From Escherichia coli (GTDB lineage: Bacteria > Pseudomonadota > Gammaproteobacteria > Enterobacterales > Enterobacteriaceae), in NCBI RefSeq assembly GCF_030013205.1, contig NZ_CP122648.1: a stretch of 64,000 nt of DNA; one strand, written 5' to 3'. Under the pieces are notes generated by a model that had not been told where the DNA came from, searched no databases, and saw only the letters and a program-made list of their open reading frames with translations. The translations under genes were made by a program, and so were the position numbers. Positions 15,523 through 42,859 of the stretch are shown in pieces. Positions within the stretch are counted from its first letter, which is position 1, and every line of letters starts with the position of its first letter.

Positions 15523-15885
15523 TGGTGGAGCTGGCGGGAGTTGAACCCGCGTCCGAAATTCCTACGTCCTCGGTACTACATGCTTAGTCAGTCTTTACAT
15601 TCGCTTGCCAGCTGCGGACGGACACGCCACTAACAAACTAGCCTGATTAAGTTTTAACGCTTCAACCCCAGGCAGGGCTTCCACGCGATCTCTTTTGGGT
15701 TTGACCTCTCTTGATCCCCGTCCTAAGAGCGGAGGCTAGGGAGAGAGGGCTCTAAGCAGGTTATTAAGCTGCTAAAGCGTAGTTTTCGTCGTTTGCGACT
15801 ATTTTTTGCGGCTTTTTACGAGGCCAACCGCCCCTCGGCATGCACCTTGGGTTTCGCAAATCCCGTCGAATCCAGAATCAGCCCC
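15523..15885 (-). ncRNA. ssrA: tmRNA (SsrA), 363 nt
   Basis: Reverse complement begins GGGGCTGATTCTGGATTCGACGGG and ends ...GGGTTCAACTCCCGCCAGCTCCACCA; the tag-template region is present. Confidence 0.95.
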
Positions 15886-33960: not shown

Positions 33961-34046
33961 AAAACCCACTGAATTCAATGTTTTCCCTTTGTTTTCAGTG
34001 GGTTTTGTTATTGGTGGGGGTTACTGATTACCCTATAAAACCCACT
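33961..34046. repeat. Putative prophage attL / integrase arm-site region with AAAACCCACT repeats
   Basis: AAAACCCACTGAA and its reverse complement TTCAGTGGGTTTT form a 13-bp inverted repeat; a third direct copy AAAACCCACT overlaps the int stop codon (approximate coordinates). Confidence 0.5.
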
Positions 34047-35035
34047 TATGTGGATGAAATGTGGATGCCTCCTTTTAATGGATTAAGTGAAATTGCATCC
34101 TGGAGGAAATCAGGAGCGAGGTGCGCATAGGTCATAGTTTGCTGGATCGTGGCGTGCCCCATAATTCGCTGGAGCGTAAGTATATTTCCTCCATTAATCA
34201 TAAAGTGAGCAGCAAAGGTATGGCGTAGAACATGTACAGCCTGTCCTTTTGGTAGGTCTGGCTTAACACTGCGAAGCACCTTGCGATATTCTTCATAATT
34301 GACGTCAAACAAAAGGCCGGATTTCTTTGTTTTGATCTCACTAACAACTTCATCAGAGACAGGAATAATTCGAACTTTTCCGTTTTTAGTTTTGTTAAAC
34401 GTCACGCGATTATTGATGATGTGTTCCGCGCGCAGATTTTTCGCTTCTCCCCATCTCGCCCCAGTACTGAGACAAAGTAGCGTAATCCGCCGAGCATCAC
34501 CGCTTACTGCATCCAGCAATTTGGCGATTTCTTCCGTAGTGAGGTACGTCATTTCGGGTGATTTTCGTTTCAAAGAGGGGAGGGCGCGGAGTGGATTTTC
34601 TCCGTGAAATTCTCCGGCATTTGCCAGGAGTGTAAACATTCCTCCGAGATCCGACTCATCACGCCGAACAGTAGACTCTTTTACTCCCAAGGATAAACGG
34701 GAGCTTCGATAAGCTGCCATGAAACGAGCATTAATCTGGCTAACCCTTGGATCATTCATTTCTTTGATGATTTTTTTCAATCTGGTTAGAACGCCGTTAG
34801 CATATGGCTTATTGCGTCCACCCAATTCCCACCATAACGGAAGCAGATCTGAGAGATGACGTTGCTCTGTTGGCTTTTCAAGCCATTCCTTATCGTGCAT
34901 GTGGCTGAGAACATAGCGCTCAAAGGCCACTGCATCTGCCTTTTTCTTAAAAATCCGCTGGATCCGACGTCCACTTCGGCCACGCGGTCTAACATCCACT
35001 TTATACCGTCCACCATCGAGTGCTTTAATTGCCAT
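34046..35035 (-). CDS. int: P2-type prophage integrase (tyrosine recombinase)
   Basis: Probable start MAIKALDGGRYKVDVRPRGRSGRRIQ...; C-terminus ...HVLRHTFAAHFMINGGNILTLQRIMGHATIQQTMTYAHLAPDFLQDAISLNPL matches P2 Int as recalled. Confidence 0.9.
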   Translation of the reverse strand: MAIKALDGGRYKVDVRPRGRSGRRIQRIFKKKADAVAFERYVLSHMHDKEWLEKPTEQRHLSDLLPLWWELGGRNKPYANGVLTRLKKIIKEMNDPRVSQINARFMAAYRSSRLSLGVKESTVRRDESDLGGMFTLLANAGEFHGENPLRALPSLKRKSPEMTYLTTEEIAKLLDAVSGDARRITLLCLSTGARWGEAKNLRAEHIINNRVTFNKTKNGKVRIIPVSDEVVSEIKTKKSGLLFDVNYEEYRKVLRSVKPDLPKGQAVHVLRHTFAAHFMINGGNILTLQRIMGHATIQQTMTYAHLAPDFLQDAISLNPLKGGIHISST

Positions 35036-35101: not shown

Positions 35102-35404
35102 TTAACCAATTTTCCTTTCGGATGGGGGTAAATCCGTTGGTTCTTGCCCATAGTGTGCGAGAGCCGGAGCTATCTGCCCGGATTCAGGCGCAATTTTTCC
35201 AGTCATAAACCACAACGCATATTTCTCAAATCTGGGGTTGTTTAGTATTTGCTCAATTACTTCAGCATTAGGGATAGTTTTACCGCTTTCATATCTCCAC
35301 AGAGCATCACGGTTTAAACCAAGCATTTTTGCTGTATCCGGGAGGCTAGTAAGTCTCTCGCTTTCACGCATGATTTTTATGCGCTCTCCAATAGTCATAC
35401 GCAT
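35102..35404 (-). CDS. C: P2 C-type immunity repressor
   Basis: ...MTIGERIKIMRESERLTSLPDTAKMLGLNRDALWRYESGKTIPNAEVIEQILNNPRFEKYALWFMTGKIAPESGQIAPALAHYGQ... resembles P2 C; start codon choice uncertain (35404 or 35397). Confidence 0.8.
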   Translation of the reverse strand: MRMTIGERIKIMRESERLTSLPDTAKMLGLNRDALWRYESGKTIPNAEVIEQILNNPRFEKYALWFMTGKIAPESGQIAPALAHYGQEPTDLPPSERKIG

Positions 35405-35499
35405 GTTGCAATTCTCCAACGTCTGTATTAATGTTTATACAAATGAGTTTGATTTGGGGCATCCGTCGCAAGAAATACCCCAAACAGGGAGATTATCAC

Positions 35500-35826
35500 A
35501 TGAATGAAGAACTATTGAGGGCATTGTTTAAGATCCCGGACCCCATCACCGTCGATGAGTTTTCCCGCCGCACAGGTAAGACCGAATCAGCCGTAAGAAA
35601 GTTGGTAGAGCGTCGACTCATCCCTCTAACTACTGAGCGCGAGGTTTTAGGCGAGGAAGGGAGTTCGCGCCGTCTTCTCATCCTTTGGAATGAGTGGCTC
35701 GAAATGGTCTATGACGCAACGAAACAGCTTCCTCCTGAGCGTAAAGATTGGCGCAATCACTGGCTTAAGAAAGCCAAGAAGCTGGCGGAAGATTTGGGAT
35801 TAGGCTTCCTTAATTTTGCTGCATGA
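35500..35826 (+). CDS. cox: Cox-like excisionase / transcriptional regulator
   Basis: Divergent from C; MNEELLRALFKIPDPITVDEFSRRTGKTESAVRKLVERRLIPL... resembles P2 Cox; Shine-Dalgarno AGGGAG upstream. Confidence 0.65.
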   Translation: MNEELLRALFKIPDPITVDEFSRRTGKTESAVRKLVERRLIPLTTEREVLGEEGSSRRLLILWNEWLEMVYDATKQLPPERKDWRNHWLKKAKKLAEDLGLGFLNFAA

Positions 35827-35844: not shown

Positions 35845-36186
35845 ATGAAACAGCAACGTAATTCACGCTTTCGTAATGGTGCTGAACGCCACGCTAACCG
35901 TTTCGCTACCAGTGCATCACGCAGCAACATCCGCTACAGCCTGAGCGAAACACACGCAACGCCGGATGGCTACCCAGTAAAACAAATCGGCGAGCACGCC
36001 TGGTTGATTGAGAAAGCTGGAATCGTGGTCCACAAATGCCCACACAATCCGTTTACCGGAAACCGCATTTTTGCACTAAGCAGCGGCGACAATCAGTTCG
36101 GACAGGATTTCACATTGTACGAAGCACTTCGTACAGTTGATCGTCTGCTTCGCGGACAAAGTTTTATTAAACAGGCTGATTTATAA
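35845..36186 (+). CDS. Hypothetical prophage early protein
   Basis: 113-aa ORF in the early operon; no family recognised. Confidence 0.45.
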   Translation: MKQQRNSRFRNGAERHANRFATSASRSNIRYSLSETHATPDGYPVKQIGEHAWLIEKAGIVVHKCPHNPFTGNRIFALSSGDNQFGQDFTLYEALRTVDRLLRGQSFIKQADL

Positions 36187-36196
36187 CAGGTGCTTT

Positions 36197-36475
36197 ATGA
36201 CCAAAGAGCATGCACAAGGTGTATTTATCCGTTTTATTGATTTTCGCGGTGAACTGTTATTACGCGCATCGGCTATTGATGCTGTAGTTCCGGCAGAAAA
36301 AGATGTGGCCACTTACCTTTATCTGAACGGCACGCGATTGTTTGTGGAACTTCCGTACCAGACCGTACGCGAAATCATTAACGAAGCTGAAAAGGCACGT
36401 CAGGTTAATGGCGATGAACCATATATCGAAATTATCTGCATGGATTCAGAAACTGAAATTCAGAAAGCAGATTAA
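36197..36475 (+). CDS. Hypothetical prophage early protein
   Basis: MTKEHAQGVFIRFIDFRGELLLRASAIDAVVPAEKD...; no family recognised. Confidence 0.45.
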   Translation: MTKEHAQGVFIRFIDFRGELLLRASAIDAVVPAEKDVATYLYLNGTRLFVELPYQTVREIINEAEKARQVNGDEPYIEIICMDSETEIQKAD

Positions 36476-36486
36476 AGGGCGTTGCG

Positions 36487-36729
36487 ATGGGCAAAGAATA
36501 TAAAACTCTCATTAACAAAGCACTTGAGCGTTTTTATTTTCGCTTAAGTGCATCAGGCGCTCATGCTGAACGTGCAGCCCGCGACTCATTGACCAGGGCA
36601 ATTCGGAGTCTGTATGACGTGGCTTTTTACGCTGATGATCTGGATGCACTTAACGAACTTTCCGAGCTGATCTGTGCCGCAGAATGCGGGGAACATATTG
36701 AACCGTATAAGCTGGGGAATATTGCATGA
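36487..36729 (+). CDS. Hypothetical prophage early protein
   Basis: 80-aa ORF MGKEYKTLINKALERFYFRLSASGAHAERAARDSL... Confidence 0.4.
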   Translation: MGKEYKTLINKALERFYFRLSASGAHAERAARDSLTRAIRSLYDVAFYADDLDALNELSELICAAECGEHIEPYKLGNIA

Positions 36730-36839
36730 GTATATTTATCTCATGGCTTGTTCTGATTATTTCGGTGGCCTGCGCCATTGGGATTATGCGAATTATTAAT
36801 TCAGTAAAAAAGATTGAACGCTTTTTCACTGGTGAATAA
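36726..36839 (+). CDS. Small hydrophobic peptide (37 aa), possible membrane-active protein
   Basis: Not in the ORF track (under 60 aa); ATG overlaps the previous stop; MSIFISWLVLIISVACAIGIMRIINSVKKIERFFTGE is one predicted transmembrane helix with a charged tail. Confidence 0.3.
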   Translation: MSIFISWLVLIISVACAIGIMRIINSVKKIERFFTGE

Positions 36840-36925
36840 CAGCGCAAATAAAACCACAGGTTAAATAAGAAAATGTAAAAACAATCCGCATTCGCGGAGG
36901 TATTCGCACACGCCAAGGAGGCGCA

Positions 36926-37129
36926 ATGGCAATTAAGCATTTTCCCGTCGTTCGTTTCACTTCCAGAGGACGTGAATACGAGGTCGACGAACGCCTGATT
37001 ACCACAATCGACAAACACCGTTCAGAACAGGATGCACATCACATCTATCTCACTGACGGCACTTACTTCTGCGCCACGAATGTGGTGCGGGTGAACCTTA
37101 TCCGACAGGTACAGGAGTCACGCAGATGA
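36926..37129 (+). CDS. Hypothetical prophage early protein
   Basis: 67-aa ORF; stop overlaps the next gene start. Confidence 0.4.
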   Translation: MAIKHFPVVRFTSRGREYEVDERLITTIDKHRSEQDAHHIYLTDGTYFCATNVVRVNLIRQVQESRR

Positions 37130-37667: not shown

Positions 37668-37989
37668 GAAACCAGAACATGCACACACAAAAAAACCGCT
37701 TGCCATGCCGTAATCAGTCAGGTTACATTTCCGCTGCACCTCATAAAACGGGTGCCGGGATTCTCAACCCGATACAGAGCAAAGCGCATAACCGCGCCAG
37801 CGGTTTTTTTGTGCGTACTGTATTGCCACGTCTTTTTCGCGTCAGAATTATGGCGGGGCGTACGGGGCCGACTTCGGTCGGGCCGGATTCTTTGCTCTCC
37901 GGTGTTGAGAACCCTGTACGTCTCGCCACCCCGAGATTCTCAACTCTGGATGGTGAGTTATTTCTATCACCGAGCAAAGAGGCCACACC

Positions 37990-38220
37990 ATGGCAAACCG
38001 CAAACAGCACCGCGCATACGCTGCGCGTCGTCACATCCAGACTGAAATCAACCGCAGACTTTCCCGCGCATTCCGCGTCGCTAAAATCATGCACATCAAT
38101 ATGCTGCATGAGCGTAGCTGCGAACTTTCAAACCTCTATTCATCCGCTGTTTTCAGCTATCTGGCGGATGATCTGCGCGAGCTTCAGCAGCTCTTCCAGC
38201 AGCAAAACAAACCCCATTAA
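37990..38220 (+). CDS. Hypothetical small basic protein
   Basis: 76-aa ORF MANRKQHRAYAARRHIQTEINRRLSRAF...; preferred over the overlapping Ser-rich 205-aa ORF. Confidence 0.35.
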   Translation: MANRKQHRAYAARRHIQTEINRRLSRAFRVAKIMHINMLHERSCELSNLYSSAVFSYLADDLRELQQLFQQQNKPH

Positions 38221-38292
38221 TTCCTGTTCCGGGCCTTTCCTGCACCTTGCGGCGGGAGGCCTTCGCACATCTGTAGTAAAGAGAATTGCAGC

Positions 38293-38682
38293 ATGATTGA
38301 CGCTCATGACTTCACAAGATGGGTGCGCACACAGGACACCCGTCTGGCTCCCGTTCTTCAGGGATTATTTGATCTCTACATCCGTGGTCGTGACAACAGA
38401 GCACGCACCACAAAACCGGAGAATGCAGACACCCTTTATTTCACAGTAGACGACTGCTACCGCGTGGACTTCACACCACACGGGCTGGCGTTGCACTGCC
38501 TGACACCACACGGCGAATCACTACTGGCGTATTACGACTCCCCGGCCTCCGTATTTGCGGCAATGCTGGCGCATCGCACTGCTGGCGGGTGTGCCTCGCT
38601 GAGTGAATACACCGCTGAATTTGACCGCCTTTCCGCCATCTTCTCGCAGGAGTGGCAGCGCGTGACGGGATACCAGCCATGA
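38293..38682 (+). CDS. Hypothetical protein immediately upstream of gpA (P2 gpB position)
   Basis: 129-aa ORF; stop overlaps the gpA start. Confidence 0.45.
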   Translation: MIDAHDFTRWVRTQDTRLAPVLQGLFDLYIRGRDNRARTTKPENADTLYFTVDDCYRVDFTPHGLALHCLTPHGESLLAYYDSPASVFAAMLAHRTAGGCASLSEYTAEFDRLSAIFSQEWQRVTGYQP

Positions 38683-41504
38683 GTGAGTTTGCATGGAGCT
38701 GGAATGAACCACGACCAGCCATTGATCCGGCCAGATTTACGGAGCGCAGGCAGGAAACTGAAACCGACTTGCAACGCGCCATCCGTTACTACCTTGAGGC
38801 GGACAAAAAGGCCCGGGAAGAACAGGAAGCGAAGGAGGAAGCCTTTTTCGCACAATCCGCCATGGGTAAAAAACTCATGGCATCCCTTGAGGAAGCCGGA
38901 CAGCGTGAAAAGCTGGCACAGAGCATCATCAGTAAGCGCCGGGCAACAGAACAAGACCCAGTAGCCCGTGCCTTTGCCACACTAAAGGCACTACCTGTTT
39001 ATCTGCGTGAACCACTGAGCCGCCACCTCTCTTTCCTGCGCAAAAAACAGGAAGCCGATCGCCAGAAAGGCAAAAAGAGCTGGCAGGCGGAACGCTATGC
39101 ACGCGGAACCCTGCGCAAAATATTCGAACGTCTAGATCGCACTGACGGACGCTGGCTGACACCGGGTTATCGCTCCCTTGCCGGGCGCGAACGCCTGGAC
39201 GATTTGCTTTACCTGCCGCAGCTCAACAAGCACCAGATACAGACGCTGGCCACCATGACCGCGGCGATGTTCAGCAGCACCTTCGAAACACTCTGCGATG
39301 GCTTTGGTGCCAGAGATGGCGAGCTGACCATGGATGTAATGTTGAAGGCTTACCGGATGCTGGCTCGTATCGCATTACGCCTGCACATCATGCCGCCACA
39401 TTACGAAGCCCTGAACAAGAGCGAACCGGATACGGAACTGCTGCCGGGCGCAATCCTTCGCCTGACCTGTGCGGACTGGTGGAAACGCAAACTGTGGCTG
39501 TTACGTTGCGAGTGGAGAGAAGAACAACTCCGCGCCGCCTGTCTGGTTTCCAGAAAAACATCACCCTATCTGAGCCAGGACGCGTTAAGCGAGTTTCGCG
39601 CACAGCGCGAGAAAACACGCGATTTCCTGAAAAGTTTCATGCTGGAAAATGAAGACGGGTTCACGATTGATCTCGAGACGGTGTATTACGCGGGAGTAAG
39701 TAACCCGGTTCACCGTAAGGCAGAAATGATGGCCACCATGAAGGGACTGGAACTTCTGGCCGAAGCCCGTGGCGACAGAGCGGTGTTTCTGACTGTCACC
39801 TGCCCGTCAAAATACCACGCAACAACGGAGAACGGTCATCCGAATCCCAAATGGAACGGGGCCACCATGCGCGACTCCAGCGATTACCTGGTTAACACGT
39901 TTTTTGCGGCGGTCCGCAAGAAACTGAACCGCGACGGCCTGCGCTGGTATGGCATCCGCACGGTGGAGCCTCACCATGACGGCACCGTGCACTGGCATAT
40001 GATGGTCTTTGCCCATCCGGAAGAAATCGACACCATTGTGTCCCACACCCGCGATATTGCCATTCAGGAAGATCGTCACGAGCTGGGCGATGATATTACT
40101 CCGCGCTTTAAGGCGGAGTATGTAGACGGCTCAAAAGGCACGCCAACCAGCTACATCGCCACCTACATCGGAAAGAACCTGGACAGCCGCGCCGTGGATG
40201 GCATCGACCCGAAAACAGGCAAACCACGCGTTGACCACGAAACCGGAAAATCAATGGCCGAGAGCGTGGAGCGCGCCATCGGCTGGGCGCGCCTTCACCG
40301 GGTCCGCCAGTTCCAGTTCTTTGGCATCCCATCCCGTCAGGTGTGGCGTGAACTGCGCCGCCTTGCCAGCCAGATGGCACGCAACCCGGAAGGCCCGCAA
40401 CGGCTGAAGGATGACGCAATGGACGCGGTTCTTGCTGCCGCTGATGCCGGATGTTTTGCCACCTACATTGAGAAACAGGGCGGCGTACTTGTTCCACGCA
40501 AAGACTACCTGATTCGCACCGCCTACGACCTCGCAGATGAGCTGAACGATTACGGCGAACAGAGCGTACAGATTTACGGGATCTGGTCACCACTCATCGG
40601 GGAATCCTCCCGTGTGTGCACGCACCCGGATAACTGGAAGCTGGTAAGACGTAAACCGGAAGCGGAAGACAGCACCCGCGAAAATGGTTTTGACCTTCAG
40701 GGCGGCCCTGCCGCCCCTTGGACTCGTGGCAATAACTGTCCCCGTGTACAGGAAGCAGGCAACAGCGGGACAGAACTGTCGGAAGAGCAACCAACACCGT
40801 GGCCGCAGATCCCTGACGGCGTTGATGTGGATGAATGGATGCGCTCACTGAAACGGCACGAACGCCGGGCGCTGATGCGTTCGCTGCGTGACAAACAGGC
40901 AAAAAACAGCAGTGATGAAATGCAGAGCTGGACACAGAGCCGCAAACAGCAGCGGCCTTTGCCTGATAACCACGAATTACTCGCTAAAGAATGGCGGGAG
41001 TCTGCCGAATCTCTCGGCCTGCATATCGGTGAACAGCAGATGCAGCACCTGTTACGGGGCGGCAGCCTGTACGTTGACGGCAGCATCATTGCACCGCAGG
41101 GATTTGAAATTGTACGCAAACCGGATACCCGCCCGGACAGCCGAATCACGCAGCTCTGGCAGCGCCTGAGCCGTAATCATGGCGTAAGCAGCACGGAGAT
41201 CCGCCATAACCCGGTCGCCAGCTATCTGACACAGCTGGGGGCATCAGACCCTGAAGCCGCCGCACGCCTGGCATCCACACTTCAGCAGGACCAGAACACC
41301 ATGAAAACCCCCGTTACCGTGCTTTCTGACATGCTGCGCGCCATCCGTGACGCAGAGCACGCACAGAGAATCAGTGAAACAACTGAACGCGCCCGCCGCA
41401 AAGCAGACCTGCTGCGGGGTGGCCTGATCAGTGGAAACAAAAAACAGACAGAAACGGGATTCACAAATCCCGTAAATGAGCAAAAAACGTGCCGCGATGT
41501 ATGA
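38679..41504 (+). CDS. A: Rolling-circle replication initiator (P2 gpA-like endonuclease)
   Basis: HUH-type motif ...GTVHWHMMVF... and catalytic-tyrosine region ...SYIATYIGKN...; about 940 aa. Confidence 0.8.
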   Translation: MSEFAWSWNEPRPAIDPARFTERRQETETDLQRAIRYYLEADKKAREEQEAKEEAFFAQSAMGKKLMASLEEAGQREKLAQSIISKRRATEQDPVARAFATLKALPVYLREPLSRHLSFLRKKQEADRQKGKKSWQAERYARGTLRKIFERLDRTDGRWLTPGYRSLAGRERLDDLLYLPQLNKHQIQTLATMTAAMFSSTFETLCDGFGARDGELTMDVMLKAYRMLARIALRLHIMPPHYEALNKSEPDTELLPGAILRLTCADWWKRKLWLLRCEWREEQLRAACLVSRKTSPYLSQDALSEFRAQREKTRDFLKSFMLENEDGFTIDLETVYYAGVSNPVHRKAEMMATMKGLELLAEARGDRAVFLTVTCPSKYHATTENGHPNPKWNGATMRDSSDYLVNTFFAAVRKKLNRDGLRWYGIRTVEPHHDGTVHWHMMVFAHPEEIDTIVSHTRDIAIQEDRHELGDDITPRFKAEYVDGSKGTPTSYIATYIGKNLDSRAVDGIDPKTGKPRVDHETGKSMAESVERAIGWARLHRVRQFQFFGIPSRQVWRELRRLASQMARNPEGPQRLKDDAMDAVLAAADAGCFATYIEKQGGVLVPRKDYLIRTAYDLADELNDYGEQSVQIYGIWSPLIGESSRVCTHPDNWKLVRRKPEAEDSTRENGFDLQGGPAAPWTRGNNCPRVQEAGNSGTELSEEQPTPWPQIPDGVDVDEWMRSLKRHERRALMRSLRDKQAKNSSDEMQSWTQSRKQQRPLPDNHELLAKEWRESAESLGLHIGEQQMQHLLRGGSLYVDGSIIAPQGFEIVRKPDTRPDSRITQLWQRLSRNHGVSSTEIRHNPVASYLTQLGASDPEAAARLASTLQQDQNTMKTPVTVLSDMLRAIRDAEHAQRISETTERARRKADLLRGGLISGNKKQTETGFTNPVNEQKTCRDV

Positions 41505-41580: not shown

Positions 41581-42540
41581 ATGAAAATTTGTATCGACGA
41601 CGGCTCCACCAACATCAAGCTGGCATGGACTGAGAACGGCGAACGCCGCAACGCCATCAGCCCGAACAGCTTCAAGTCGGAATGGTCTGCGCCGTTCGGT
41701 GGCTCGCAGCCTGCGAACTACATGCTTGATGGCGTGCGCTATGGTTTTGATCCGGTCAGCGATCGCTTTGTCCAGACGACCGACACGCAATACCAGTACA
41801 GCGATGTGAATGTCATTGCCATTCATCACGCGCTGGTCAAATCAGGCATCACGCCTCAGGAGGTGGATGTGGTTGTCACCCTGCCACTGAGCGAGTATTT
41901 CGACACAAACGCACAGCCAGACATGGCCAACATCAACCGCAAAAAAGCGAACGTTATGCGCCCGGTGGAGTACCAGAACGGCGAAGCATTCACTATCCGT
42001 AACGTGCGGGTTATGCCTGAATCCATTCCGGCTGGTTTTAAGGCACTGGCTGACATGAGTCCGTTTGAATCCCTGCTGATTGTGGATTTGGGCGGAACCA
42101 CGCTGGATGTGGCAAAGGTTCAGGGGCAACTGGCAGGTATCAGCCAGGTGTTTTGCGATCCACACGTAGGCGTTTCTCTGATGGCTGATGCCGTGCTGTC
42201 GGTGATGGCCACTAACGGTATGCGTACCAGTCACCACATCGCCAATACCATTATTGAGCACCGTCACGATGAAGCCTGGCTACGCCAGCACATTCACAAT
42301 GACGCGCATTACAACAGCCTGATGGCGGTTATTCGTGAAAAGGAGGAAACACTGAAACAACGCGTGATCCGCGCGCTGGCGGGTTTTTCGGGTTACGGGC
42401 GGGTGATGGTTGTAGGTGGAGGAGCGGAGATTGTGGCACCCGCTATCCGCGAAGCCTGCGGAGTTAATGCGACTTTCATCGCGGACGGGGTGCCACAGTT
42501 TGCTCTGGTTAATGGGCTGTACGCAATGGACAAGGAGTAA
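41581..42540 (+). CDS. parM: ParM/StbA-type actin-like segregation ATPase
   Basis: MKICIDDGSTNIKLAWTENG...YSDVNVIAIHHAL...IVDLGGTTLDV...VMVVGGGAEI...; close to plasmid R1 ParM as recalled. Confidence 0.8.
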   Translation: MKICIDDGSTNIKLAWTENGERRNAISPNSFKSEWSAPFGGSQPANYMLDGVRYGFDPVSDRFVQTTDTQYQYSDVNVIAIHHALVKSGITPQEVDVVVTLPLSEYFDTNAQPDMANINRKKANVMRPVEYQNGEAFTIRNVRVMPESIPAGFKALADMSPFESLLIVDLGGTTLDVAKVQGQLAGISQVFCDPHVGVSLMADAVLSVMATNGMRTSHHIANTIIEHRHDEAWLRQHIHNDAHYNSLMAVIREKEETLKQRVIRALAGFSGYGRVMVVGGGAEIVAPAIREACGVNATFIADGVPQFALVNGLYAMDKE

Positions 42541-42544
42541 ATCA

Positions 42545-42859
42545 ATGACGACACCAACCAGACGGATAAGTTTCTATCTGAAGCCCGCCGTCGTCAAGAG
42601 CGAACGGGAGGCGTGCAGTTACCTCGACAGCCTGCCAGCCTCCGAACGCAGCCGCGCACAACGCGCGGCTTTTCTGGCCGGACTGGCTCTTATAAAACGC
42701 ATCCCCGCGTTGGCGTATTCGCTGGCAGAATGGTCAGAAGACGAAATAAGGATGCCACCGCTACCAGTACAGCCTGAAAAACCGGCGAAACCAGCAGCAG
42801 ACAGCGCCCCCCATATGCAGCAGGTGAAGAAGAATATTCAGGCGTTTTTTCCGAAGTGA
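42545..42859 (+). CDS. parR: ParR-type centromere-binding adaptor
   Basis: MTTPTRRISFYLKPAVVKSEREACSYLDSLPASERSRAQRAAFLAGLAL... resembles R1 ParR (ribbon-helix-helix N-terminus). Confidence 0.7.
   Translation: MTTPTRRISFYLKPAVVKSEREACSYLDSLPASERSRAQRAAFLAGLALIKRIPALAYSLAEWSEDEIRMPPLPVQPEKPAKPAADSAPHMQQVKKNIQAFFPK

Follow-up and report, generated by a model that had tools for sequence, protein, structure and literature searches.

A small predicted membrane-peptide gene under purifying selection in the early operon of a P88-like prophage of Escherichia coli

Here, we report that a 37-codon open reading frame (ORF) in the early operon of an Escherichia coli prophage is clearly, to judge from its pattern of variation across related prophages, protein coding and under purifying selection at the amino acid level, and that it very probably represents a genuine gene for a small, single-pass membrane peptide. 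Conservation of the reading frame, the presence of translation signals and a predicted hydrophobic helix all lend support to the original prediction of a single-pass membrane peptide encoded within a prophage early operon. That prediction had also likened the product to phage host-takeover peptides, and this remains our best guess, a reasonable one drawn by analogy from the position of the gene in its operon, which recalls that of fil and dhr in phage 186, and from the architecture of the peptide. The gene is already annotated in public resources, making this a sound yet ordinary finding.

Within the window (the whole 64,000-nucleotide stretch of DNA that was analysed), the ATG-started, 37-codon ORF lies exactly where it had been placed, and its translation is identical to the one originally quoted (Table 1). 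The description of the ORF as unannotated, on the other hand, does not hold. An identical 114-nt coding sequence (CDS) in E. coli ETEC4079 is RefSeq WP_000021661.1, a "hypothetical protein"; the homologue in phage P88, gp07 (YP_009113050.1; 97% identity), which is the same gene, occupies the same position and likewise overlaps a DUF4754 gene by 4 nt, is labelled "membrane protein"; and the UniRef name of the peptide is "Prophage membrane protein". These are annotation-level records only, with nothing to set them apart from the peptide described here. E. coli, Shigella, E. albertii and Salmonella together supply at least 1000 contigs with an exact copy of the peptide, and the small CDS is called by PGAP or other gene callers in every diverged context that we fetched. 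Literature searches returned no paper containing DUF4754, the peptide sequence or the peptide accessions, and the P88 paper, which describes an inducible phage that forms plaques, does not discuss its early genes (PMC5285337).

Table 1. Features of the peptide gene and its surroundings, in window coordinates
Feature	Position	Strand	Basis or remark
Integrase	34046..35035/35068	-	Operon map
C-type HTH repressor	35102..35404	-	RefSeq annotation of identical sequence
Lysis-lysogeny switch controlling the operon	35102..35826	.	C repressor and Cox-family gene, with the early promoter between them
Cox-family gene	35500..35826	+	RefSeq annotation of identical sequence
DUF4761	35845..36186	+	Operon map
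92-aa hypothetical	36197..36475	+	Operon map
80-aa DUF4754 (PF15946) gene	36487..36729	+	Pfam E=2.8e-54; stop overlaps peptide start
SD-like GGGGAA	36714..36719	+	6-11 nt before ATG, within DUF4754 coding sequence
ATGA start/stop overlap, putative coupling site	36726..36729	+	Direct reading of sequence
37-aa peptide CDS, MSIFISWLVLIISVACAIGIMRIINSVKKIERFFTGE	36726..36839	+	Sequence and ORF; TAA stop at 36837..36839
Predicted transmembrane helix, residues 3-21	36732..36788	+	Hydrophobicity; hydrophobic run reaches I24 at 36797
Homopolymer runs A6 (36806..36811) and T5 (36822..36826)	36806..36826	+	1-nt slips give 45-aa tail variants
Conserved predicted cytoplasmic tail, K28-x-I30-E31-x-x-F34-[TS]-G-[DE]	36807..36836	+	Variant alignment
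Hairpin TCCGC-ATTC-GCGGA	36885..36898	+	Intergenic, 45 nt after peptide stop
67-aa hypothetical	36926..37129	+	Next gene after peptide
MarR-type winged-helix, Ead/Ea22-like, "ash family" CDS, 129-aa hypothetical		+	In this order after the 67-aa gene
gpA-type replication endonuclease	38679..41504	+	Operon map

The window holds E. coli pheA and pheL, followed by the prophage. As this element matches P88 and other Xuanwuvirus phages (Peduoviridae, P2-like) at 95-96% identity over 801 nt, "prophage early operon" is a correct description of the location, and the element that carries the ORF is a P88-like prophage (Xuanwuvirus, P2 family) integrated next to pheA-pheL. Annotation was transferred from identical sequence in RefSeq, with an offset of +33399 from locus to window, and a syntenic locus at the same pheA-pheL site (L095) gives Pfam HTH_3 and Phage_Cox matches. 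The gene order runs int, C repressor, cox, DUF4761 (then the 92-aa hypothetical), DUF4754, the peptide, variable genes and gpA, with the ORF thus falling between cox and the replication endonuclease gene of a P2-family prophage. No internal promoter above chance was detected in the stretch from cox to the peptide, with five promoter-like sites found in the operon vs 4.4 expected. Beyond the peptide gene lies a hairpin in which 98.8% of cells are paired, and two of its five pairs have undergone compensatory changes from CG to UA. Wherever the hairpin occurs, down to the most diverged lineages, L098 and L099, its stem is kept and its loop varies. The 3' arm contains GGAGG. The hairpin marks the end of a conserved DUF4761-DUF4754-peptide block, past which variable cargo genes are found.

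To examine the coding capacity of the ORF across related prophages, we used DUF4754 as an anchor and gathered 106 loci from IMG/VR, RefSeq, GenBank assemblies and Logan. The ORF is intact in 96 of them, as a 37-aa form in 83 and a 41-aa form in 13. In a further eight loci, a frameshifted tail gives a 45-aa form, and the last two loci are disrupted, one of these being a record with indels in both the DUF4754 and peptide genes. A "57%-identical" copy in phage 503458 was rejected as an instance of true divergence because its record has indels in both genes. Pooled over 37-40 distinct haplotypes, pN/pS in the annotated frame is 0.21-0.22 vs 1.4-1.6 in the shifted frames, the two shifted sense frames giving 1.44-1.51, and variable sites number 14, 7 and 25 at codon positions 1, 2 and 3. 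When the ORF is compared pairwise with loci of increasing divergence, omega is 0.05-0.25, a range shared by the flanking DUF4754 gene. The original prediction was to be given up if homologues did not conserve the reading frame and no translation signal was seen; the 96 intact frames and the pN/pS of 0.22 contradict the former.

The translation signals contradict the latter. Overlapping stop/start pairs are an established basis for reading termination-reinitiation coupling, and the ATGA at the junction of the DUF4754 and peptide genes is kept in 104 of the 106 loci, including lineages in which DUF4754 is at just 35-41% identity. A purine-rich, SD-like motif precedes the start by 6-11 nt in all nine lineages that we compared, although the DUF4754 C-terminal residues encoded there differ (LGNIA, TGVAA, IEGET, IEELA). 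The anti-SD duplex energy is -5.5 kcal/mol for the peptide gene and -4.2 to -8.5 kcal/mol over the nine lineages; values for other genes of the operon range from -3.8 to -11.4 kcal/mol, the last being that of the next gene. Taken together, the SD-like motif and the conserved ATGA suggest that translation of the peptide is coupled to that of DUF4754 by termination and reinitiation. Of the "overlapping start and stop coupling" previously proposed, then, the start half stands, with the peptide ATG lying on the upstream TGA, and the stop half does not: with an intergenic gap of 87 nt between the peptide stop and the gene that follows, the 3' end of the ORF is uncoupled. We also considered a programmed frameshift fusing DUF4754 to the peptide, which was rejected given a peptide-frame TAA at 36708..36710, six codons before the ATG, and the lack of a slippery heptamer in the last five DUF4754 codons. 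Proteins of 103-128 aa named "DUF4754" were likewise rejected as natural fusions of the two products, these being frameshifted reads, mostly from Logan and ENA assemblies.

The single hydrophobic segment originally described is borne out, with residues 3-21 giving a Kyte-Doolittle 19-residue mean of 2.68 and forming the best 19-residue window in all nine lineages. The summed Hessa-scale dG for these residues, calculated with the scale values of Hessa et al. 2005, is about -2.9 kcal/mol here and -2.9 to -4.1 kcal/mol across the nine lineages. Lysine and arginine are absent before the helix in every lineage and number four to six after it and, because these residues lie only on the C-terminal side, the positive-inside rule predicts an N-out/C-in orientation. 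The predicted topology is therefore one helix, N-out/C-in, with a cytoplasmic tail of 13-17 residues and with R22 sitting near the predicted cytoplasmic interface; in the AlphaFold model, the peptide is one continuous long helix. The tail, which had been called basic, is so only weakly, with four K/R vs two E (net +2, counting R22) and a net charge of +1 to +3 in the nine lineages.

Across variants, the residues invariant overall are M1, S6, W7, L10, G19, I23, I24, K28, I30, E31 and F34, the last four of which belong to the tail motif and are invariant in ten diverse variants. The 41-aa sister forms extend the tail with KRRK, ERRK, KHHK or KRHK. The moment of conservation is highest at 90-110 degrees per residue, defining a stripe of S6, L10, S13, A17, I20, I24, K28 and E31; as the permutation P value of 0.06-0.09 is not significant, alpha-helical periodicity of conservation, and with it a conserved helix face, is suggestive only. 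In the eight loci with frameshifted tails, the sequence reads ...ERFSL(V/A/M)NN..., and two separate 45-aa forms (P0064 and P0066) read ...KRLNAFSL.... Because the frameshift removes the F-[TS]-G-[DE] motif in these 8 of 106 loci, the tail may be dispensable, or the frameshifted copies may be decaying or mis-sequenced.

The peptide belongs to a tiny family, essentially confined to P88-like prophages of Escherichia. A profile built from 13 variants and run against 1.84 billion representative proteins returned 18 matches, all of them the same peptide or its fragments (among them P0063-P0069, with E values of 1e-19 to 7e-10), and a degenerate DNA pattern for the core was found in only 1 of 100,044 species-representative genomes, that of E. 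albertii. The range of DUF4754 is equally narrow. This distribution suggests that the family is young and lineage restricted. Within E. coli, the region is present in about 1387 of 5426 complete genomes, and the most diverged copy (L099) adjoins glsA. The peptide has no match in Pfam, PHROGs, NCBIfam or PADLOC (Pfam and NCBIfam at E<=0.1), and its profile found no PDB sequence at E<=10.

The adjacent DUF4754 gene lies directly upstream with the 4-nt overlap in every lineage. We ran AlphaFold on a DUF4754-linker-peptide fusion with a paired alignment and read the secondary structure from the model, in which DUF4754 forms a three-helix bundle (pLDDT about 85-90); DUF4754 is thus predicted to be a small, soluble helical bundle without a membrane segment of its own. 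A Foldseek search of the PDB with the fusion model gave nothing below E=0.8, returning generic helical bundles only. DUF4754 identity between the nine lineages falls to 26-45%, and in 29 of the 36 pairwise lineage comparisons the peptide is the better conserved of the two, with a mean identity of 67% vs 52%. For example, between the window and locus L084 the peptide is 70% identical and DUF4754 41% (dN of 0.228 vs 0.724). This slower evolution of the peptide indicates that selection acts on the peptide product itself, beyond the act of translation. One mosaic locus (L104) pairs one DUF4754 type with the peptide type of another lineage, implying that the two genes are not strictly co-evolving; together with the very different evolutionary rates, this mosaic argues against a tight physical pairing of DUF4754 and the peptide.

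How does the peptide compare with characterised small membrane proteins? Type I toxins are peptides of fewer than 60 aa that target the inner membrane, consist of a single hydrophobic helix followed by a short, charged C-terminal stretch, and are often prophage borne (PMC12648545). With 37 aa and a single hydrophobic helix, the peptide is like Hok/Gef, Ldr, TisB, Ibs, DinQ and Fst in size, helix number and charged C-terminus, and the original prediction had noted a resemblance to small membrane toxins. No type I toxin family (Hok/Gef, Ldr, TisB, Ibs, ShoB, Fst and others) was matched in Pfam or NCBIfam at E<=0.1, and Rfam searches at or antisense to the ORF gave no plausible antitoxin family at the gathering threshold or at E<=5, the noise around the ORF consisting of eukaryotic snoRNA and miRNA families with E>1. 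Unlike these toxin genes, the ORF overlaps an upstream gene within a lytic operon and, because of that 4-nt overlap, is without a transcription unit or 5' UTR of its own; the same prophage also carries a separate, genuine Hok/Gef gene, located towards the far end of the element and beyond the window. Holins resemble the peptide in being small membrane proteins of phages that end in a charged tail. Known holin classes are about 60-220 aa in length and usually have two or more transmembrane segments, unlike the 37-aa peptide with its one segment, early-operon position and lack of an adjoining endolysin. The prophage has its own 98-aa holin-family gene and an M15 endolysin (peptidase) in its late region, some 16.7 kb downstream. 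On these membership tests, the peptide appears to be neither a type I toxin nor the phage holin.

The closest positional parallel comes from phage 186, a member of the same family (Peduoviridae), where fil and dhr occupy the same stretch of the operon, with the cox/apl-cII switch genes on one side and, on the other, the non-essential genes that precede replication gene A. Fil (75 aa) is an inhibitor of cell division and Dhr (66 aa) an inhibitor of host replication. Like these takeover genes, the peptide gene belongs to the early operon and sits after the switch genes and before the replication gene, and the 186 stretch is followed by the terminator tR1 much as the peptide stretch is followed by a hairpin. 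The analogy is one of position: neither the peptide nor DUF4754 matched 186 Fil or Dhr by BLASTP (word size 2, E<=10), neither of those two proteins is predicted to be a single-pass membrane peptide, unlike the product described here, and a scan of the plus strand of the 186 early region for ORFs of 20-71 aa found none with a strongly hydrophobic window. In architecture, the peptide is instead comparable to small membrane-protein regulators, being single-pass and within 50 aa. Caulobacter SidA and SPO1 gp56, the latter the product of a phage early host-takeover gene, are small membrane inhibitors of division that, together with the MgrB-type set, have a single transmembrane helix and fewer than about 50-80 aa; they share these general properties with the peptide, to which they show no homology. 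MgrB, AcrZ, MgtS and SgrT are likewise small and single-pass without homology to the peptide, and small membrane regulators use a single helix to bind a larger membrane protein (PMC12648545).

We tentatively favour, at somewhat below an even chance, the explanation that the peptide is a small-membrane-protein modulator of the host during early lytic growth. As the distal cistron of a coupled DUF4754-peptide pair in a repressor-controlled early lytic operon, it would be expressed only once the C repressor is lifted, that is, upon induction or infection. The peptide would then insert in the inner membrane by its one helix (residues about 3-24), leaving a two-residue periplasmic N-terminus. The conserved small and polar residues of this helix (S6, S/A13, A17, G19) may pack against a membrane-protein target, and the tail motif may dock a cytoplasmic partner, for which the co-translated DUF4754 is a plausible candidate. 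Docking would alter host envelope or membrane function early in lytic growth, with 186 fil/dhr as the positional analogue. Because the polar and small residues of the helix and the tail motif are invariant and conservation suggests a stripe, such a specific interaction is likelier than bulk membrane damage. Searches of family libraries and the PDB, and BLASTP against Fil and Dhr, gave no similarity of the peptide to any characterised takeover protein. A bolder form of this idea, which we consider unlikely, is that DUF4754 and the peptide make up a host-takeover module of two components, not recognised before, in P88-like phages, in which the helix would sit on a specific host inner-membrane machine (e.g. 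for division or envelope synthesis), the tail would recruit DUF4754 to reprogram the host transiently, and the hairpin would form the 3' end of the early transcript unit.

Several other explanations merit consideration. The peptide might serve as a membrane anchor or obligate subunit, produced in fixed stoichiometry with DUF4754 through translational coupling, its tail binding the DUF4754 three-helix bundle and keeping it at the inner membrane, and DUF4754 carrying the activity. The conserved cytoplasmic tail motif, the modelled solubility of DUF4754 and the persistence of the ATGA-linked pair in 104 of 106 loci and nine lineages despite differing flanking genes are all consistent with this; however, far stronger conservation of the peptide would be unusual if its partner carried the function, the L104 locus shows independent recombination of both genes, and variants with a frameshifted tail persist, leaving this an improbable account overall. 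We are more doubtful still that the peptide is a non-specific depolarising toxin of the Hok, TisB or Ldr kind, or a mini-holin, that oligomerises to shut down the host early. Its size and single helix with a short charged C-terminus do fit type I toxins, and its small-xxx-small spacing (S13-A17, A15-G19) could allow self-association, but the missing toxin and antisense RNA families, the lack of its own promoter or 5' UTR, and the presence of both a late holin with endolysin and a real Hok/Gef elsewhere in the phage all weigh against it. Depolarisation before DNA replication and morphogenesis would moreover hurt the phage, and the position-specific conservation, including that of the tail, exceeds what bulk hydrophobicity needs.

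HK97 gp15 and T4 Imm are small phage membrane proteins that act in superinfection exclusion or immunity, and a comparable factor directed against DNA entry or a receptor-associated membrane protein might be expected of a small predicted inner-membrane protein from a temperate phage in so widespread a region. We think this very unlikely: PADLOC gave no match, the prevalence simply follows that of the prophage, and the peptide should be silent in lysogens because its lytic operon is repressor controlled with no internal promoter above chance, which counts against a role in exclusion. There is also only a slight probability that the ORF matters just by being translated, whether as an arrest peptide of the MifM/SecM kind or as a leader or coupling ORF with control over polarity, the hairpin or mRNA structure. 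Such a role could account for the conserved block closing with a short ORF and for the conserved, GGAGG-containing hairpin 45 nt on; against it stand the amino acid-level purifying selection along the whole peptide, an extreme C-terminus that is not fixed (37-aa and 41-aa forms) and the strong SD that the next gene has of its own. As the stop is 45 nt away, a terminating ribosome cannot melt the hairpin, and this distance together with the variable C-terminus led us to reject an arrest peptide. Finally, we give almost no credence to a chance ORF, or to the real gene being an overlapping ORF of 122 aa on the minus strand (36650..37018). In the window this antisense frame is open, and its pN/pS is 0.31, a value that reflects a mirror effect because its wobble positions are common to the sense frame; it would, however, overlap two other conserved plus-strand genes, and it was rejected on finding stops in 26 of 40 haplotypes vs a sense frame open in all 40.

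In conclusion, the peptide is a well-supported case of a small phage gene hidden by length cut-offs, though PGAP already calls it, and the finding opens no long-standing question. It is among the most conserved products of the early operon and occurs in about a quarter of complete E. coli genomes. As such, it is useful for cataloguing functional small membrane proteins, and it offers a cheap and reasonable target for studying early host manipulation by P2-family phages.

The 87-nt spacer that follows the 37-codon membrane-peptide ORF (P88 gp07) is highly conserved, with a mean column identity of 87%, and its conservation persists where unrelated cassettes substitute for the downstream gene. 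Within it lies a hairpin, TCCGC-NNNN-GCGGA(GG), whose stem is retained in every lineage having the block, including the most diverged, with a loop that varies freely. Pairing holds in 98.8% of cells, and compensatory CG to UA changes occur at two of the five pairs. Read on the minus strand, the hairpin has a T-rich, terminator-like run after it, and minus-strand RNA of this region folds with a z of -2.8; on the plus strand of the hairpin, a U-tract is absent. In the P2-family phage 186, the terminator tR1 occupies the equivalent operon position.

The hairpin block is missing from L084, a diverged E. coli prophage, where a second hydrophobic and unannotated ORF begins 12 nt past the peptide. 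In another related locus, L104, a DUF4754 gene of the L091-L094 type stands beside a peptide gene of the L103 type, which places recombination breakpoints at or near the 4-nt junction between the two genes. The tail of the peptide varies as well: 1-nt slips in two homopolymer runs of its ORF give a recurrent 45-aa form with an altered tail, ending in ...ERFSLVNNDTNKTSN or ...KRLNAFSLANN.... This form was found in 8 of the 106 loci, spread over several distinct haplotypes, and also stands as separate protein clusters (P0064 and P0066); the 45-aa forms may be real alleles, products of decay or sequencing errors.

Coordinates of features in the window and in prophage locus L084
Feature	Position	Strand	Remarks
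tmRNA gene (ssrA)	15523..15885	-	about 18 kb upstream of prophage
A6 run in peptide ORF	36806..36811		source of 1-nt slips
T5 run in peptide ORF	36822..36826		source of 1-nt slips
Spacer after peptide	36840..36925		87 nt
Hairpin	36885..36898		within spacer
'ash family protein' CDS	37679..38296	+	205 aa; RefSeq name
isrK	37736..37810	+	Rfam, 62.8 bits
C4 antisense RNA	37846..37933	+	Rfam, 78.5 bits
ParM-type segregation ATPase and 'plasmid partitioning/stability' gene	about 41581..42859	+	mapped from NZ_CP122643.1 1257306..1258584
Second hydrophobic ORF, 33 codons	L084 2641..2742	+	MKNVKVILTIATAWVIFQVSALIWLALKNLGII

The P88 GenBank record KP063541.1 names the DUF4754 gene 'DNA modification methyltransferase', a label without Pfam support, and in the record of phage 503458 (NC_049341.1) indels disrupt the DUF4754 gene as well as the peptide. 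Among the 'DUF4754' proteins of 103-128 aa in Logan and ENA, many are frameshift read-throughs.

The ParM-type ATPase and partitioning genes lie directly 3' of the prophage replication endonuclease; such segregation genes are unusual cargo in an integrated P2-like phage. Because ssrA is a common integration site, the DNA flanking it may hold another element.

Finally, the isrK and C4 antisense RNA matches both fall inside the 'ash family' CDS, the N-terminal half of which is probably not protein-coding and consists instead of RNA genes. These probably form an anti-repressor control region of the P1/P7 c4 type or the Gifsy-1 IsrK type.
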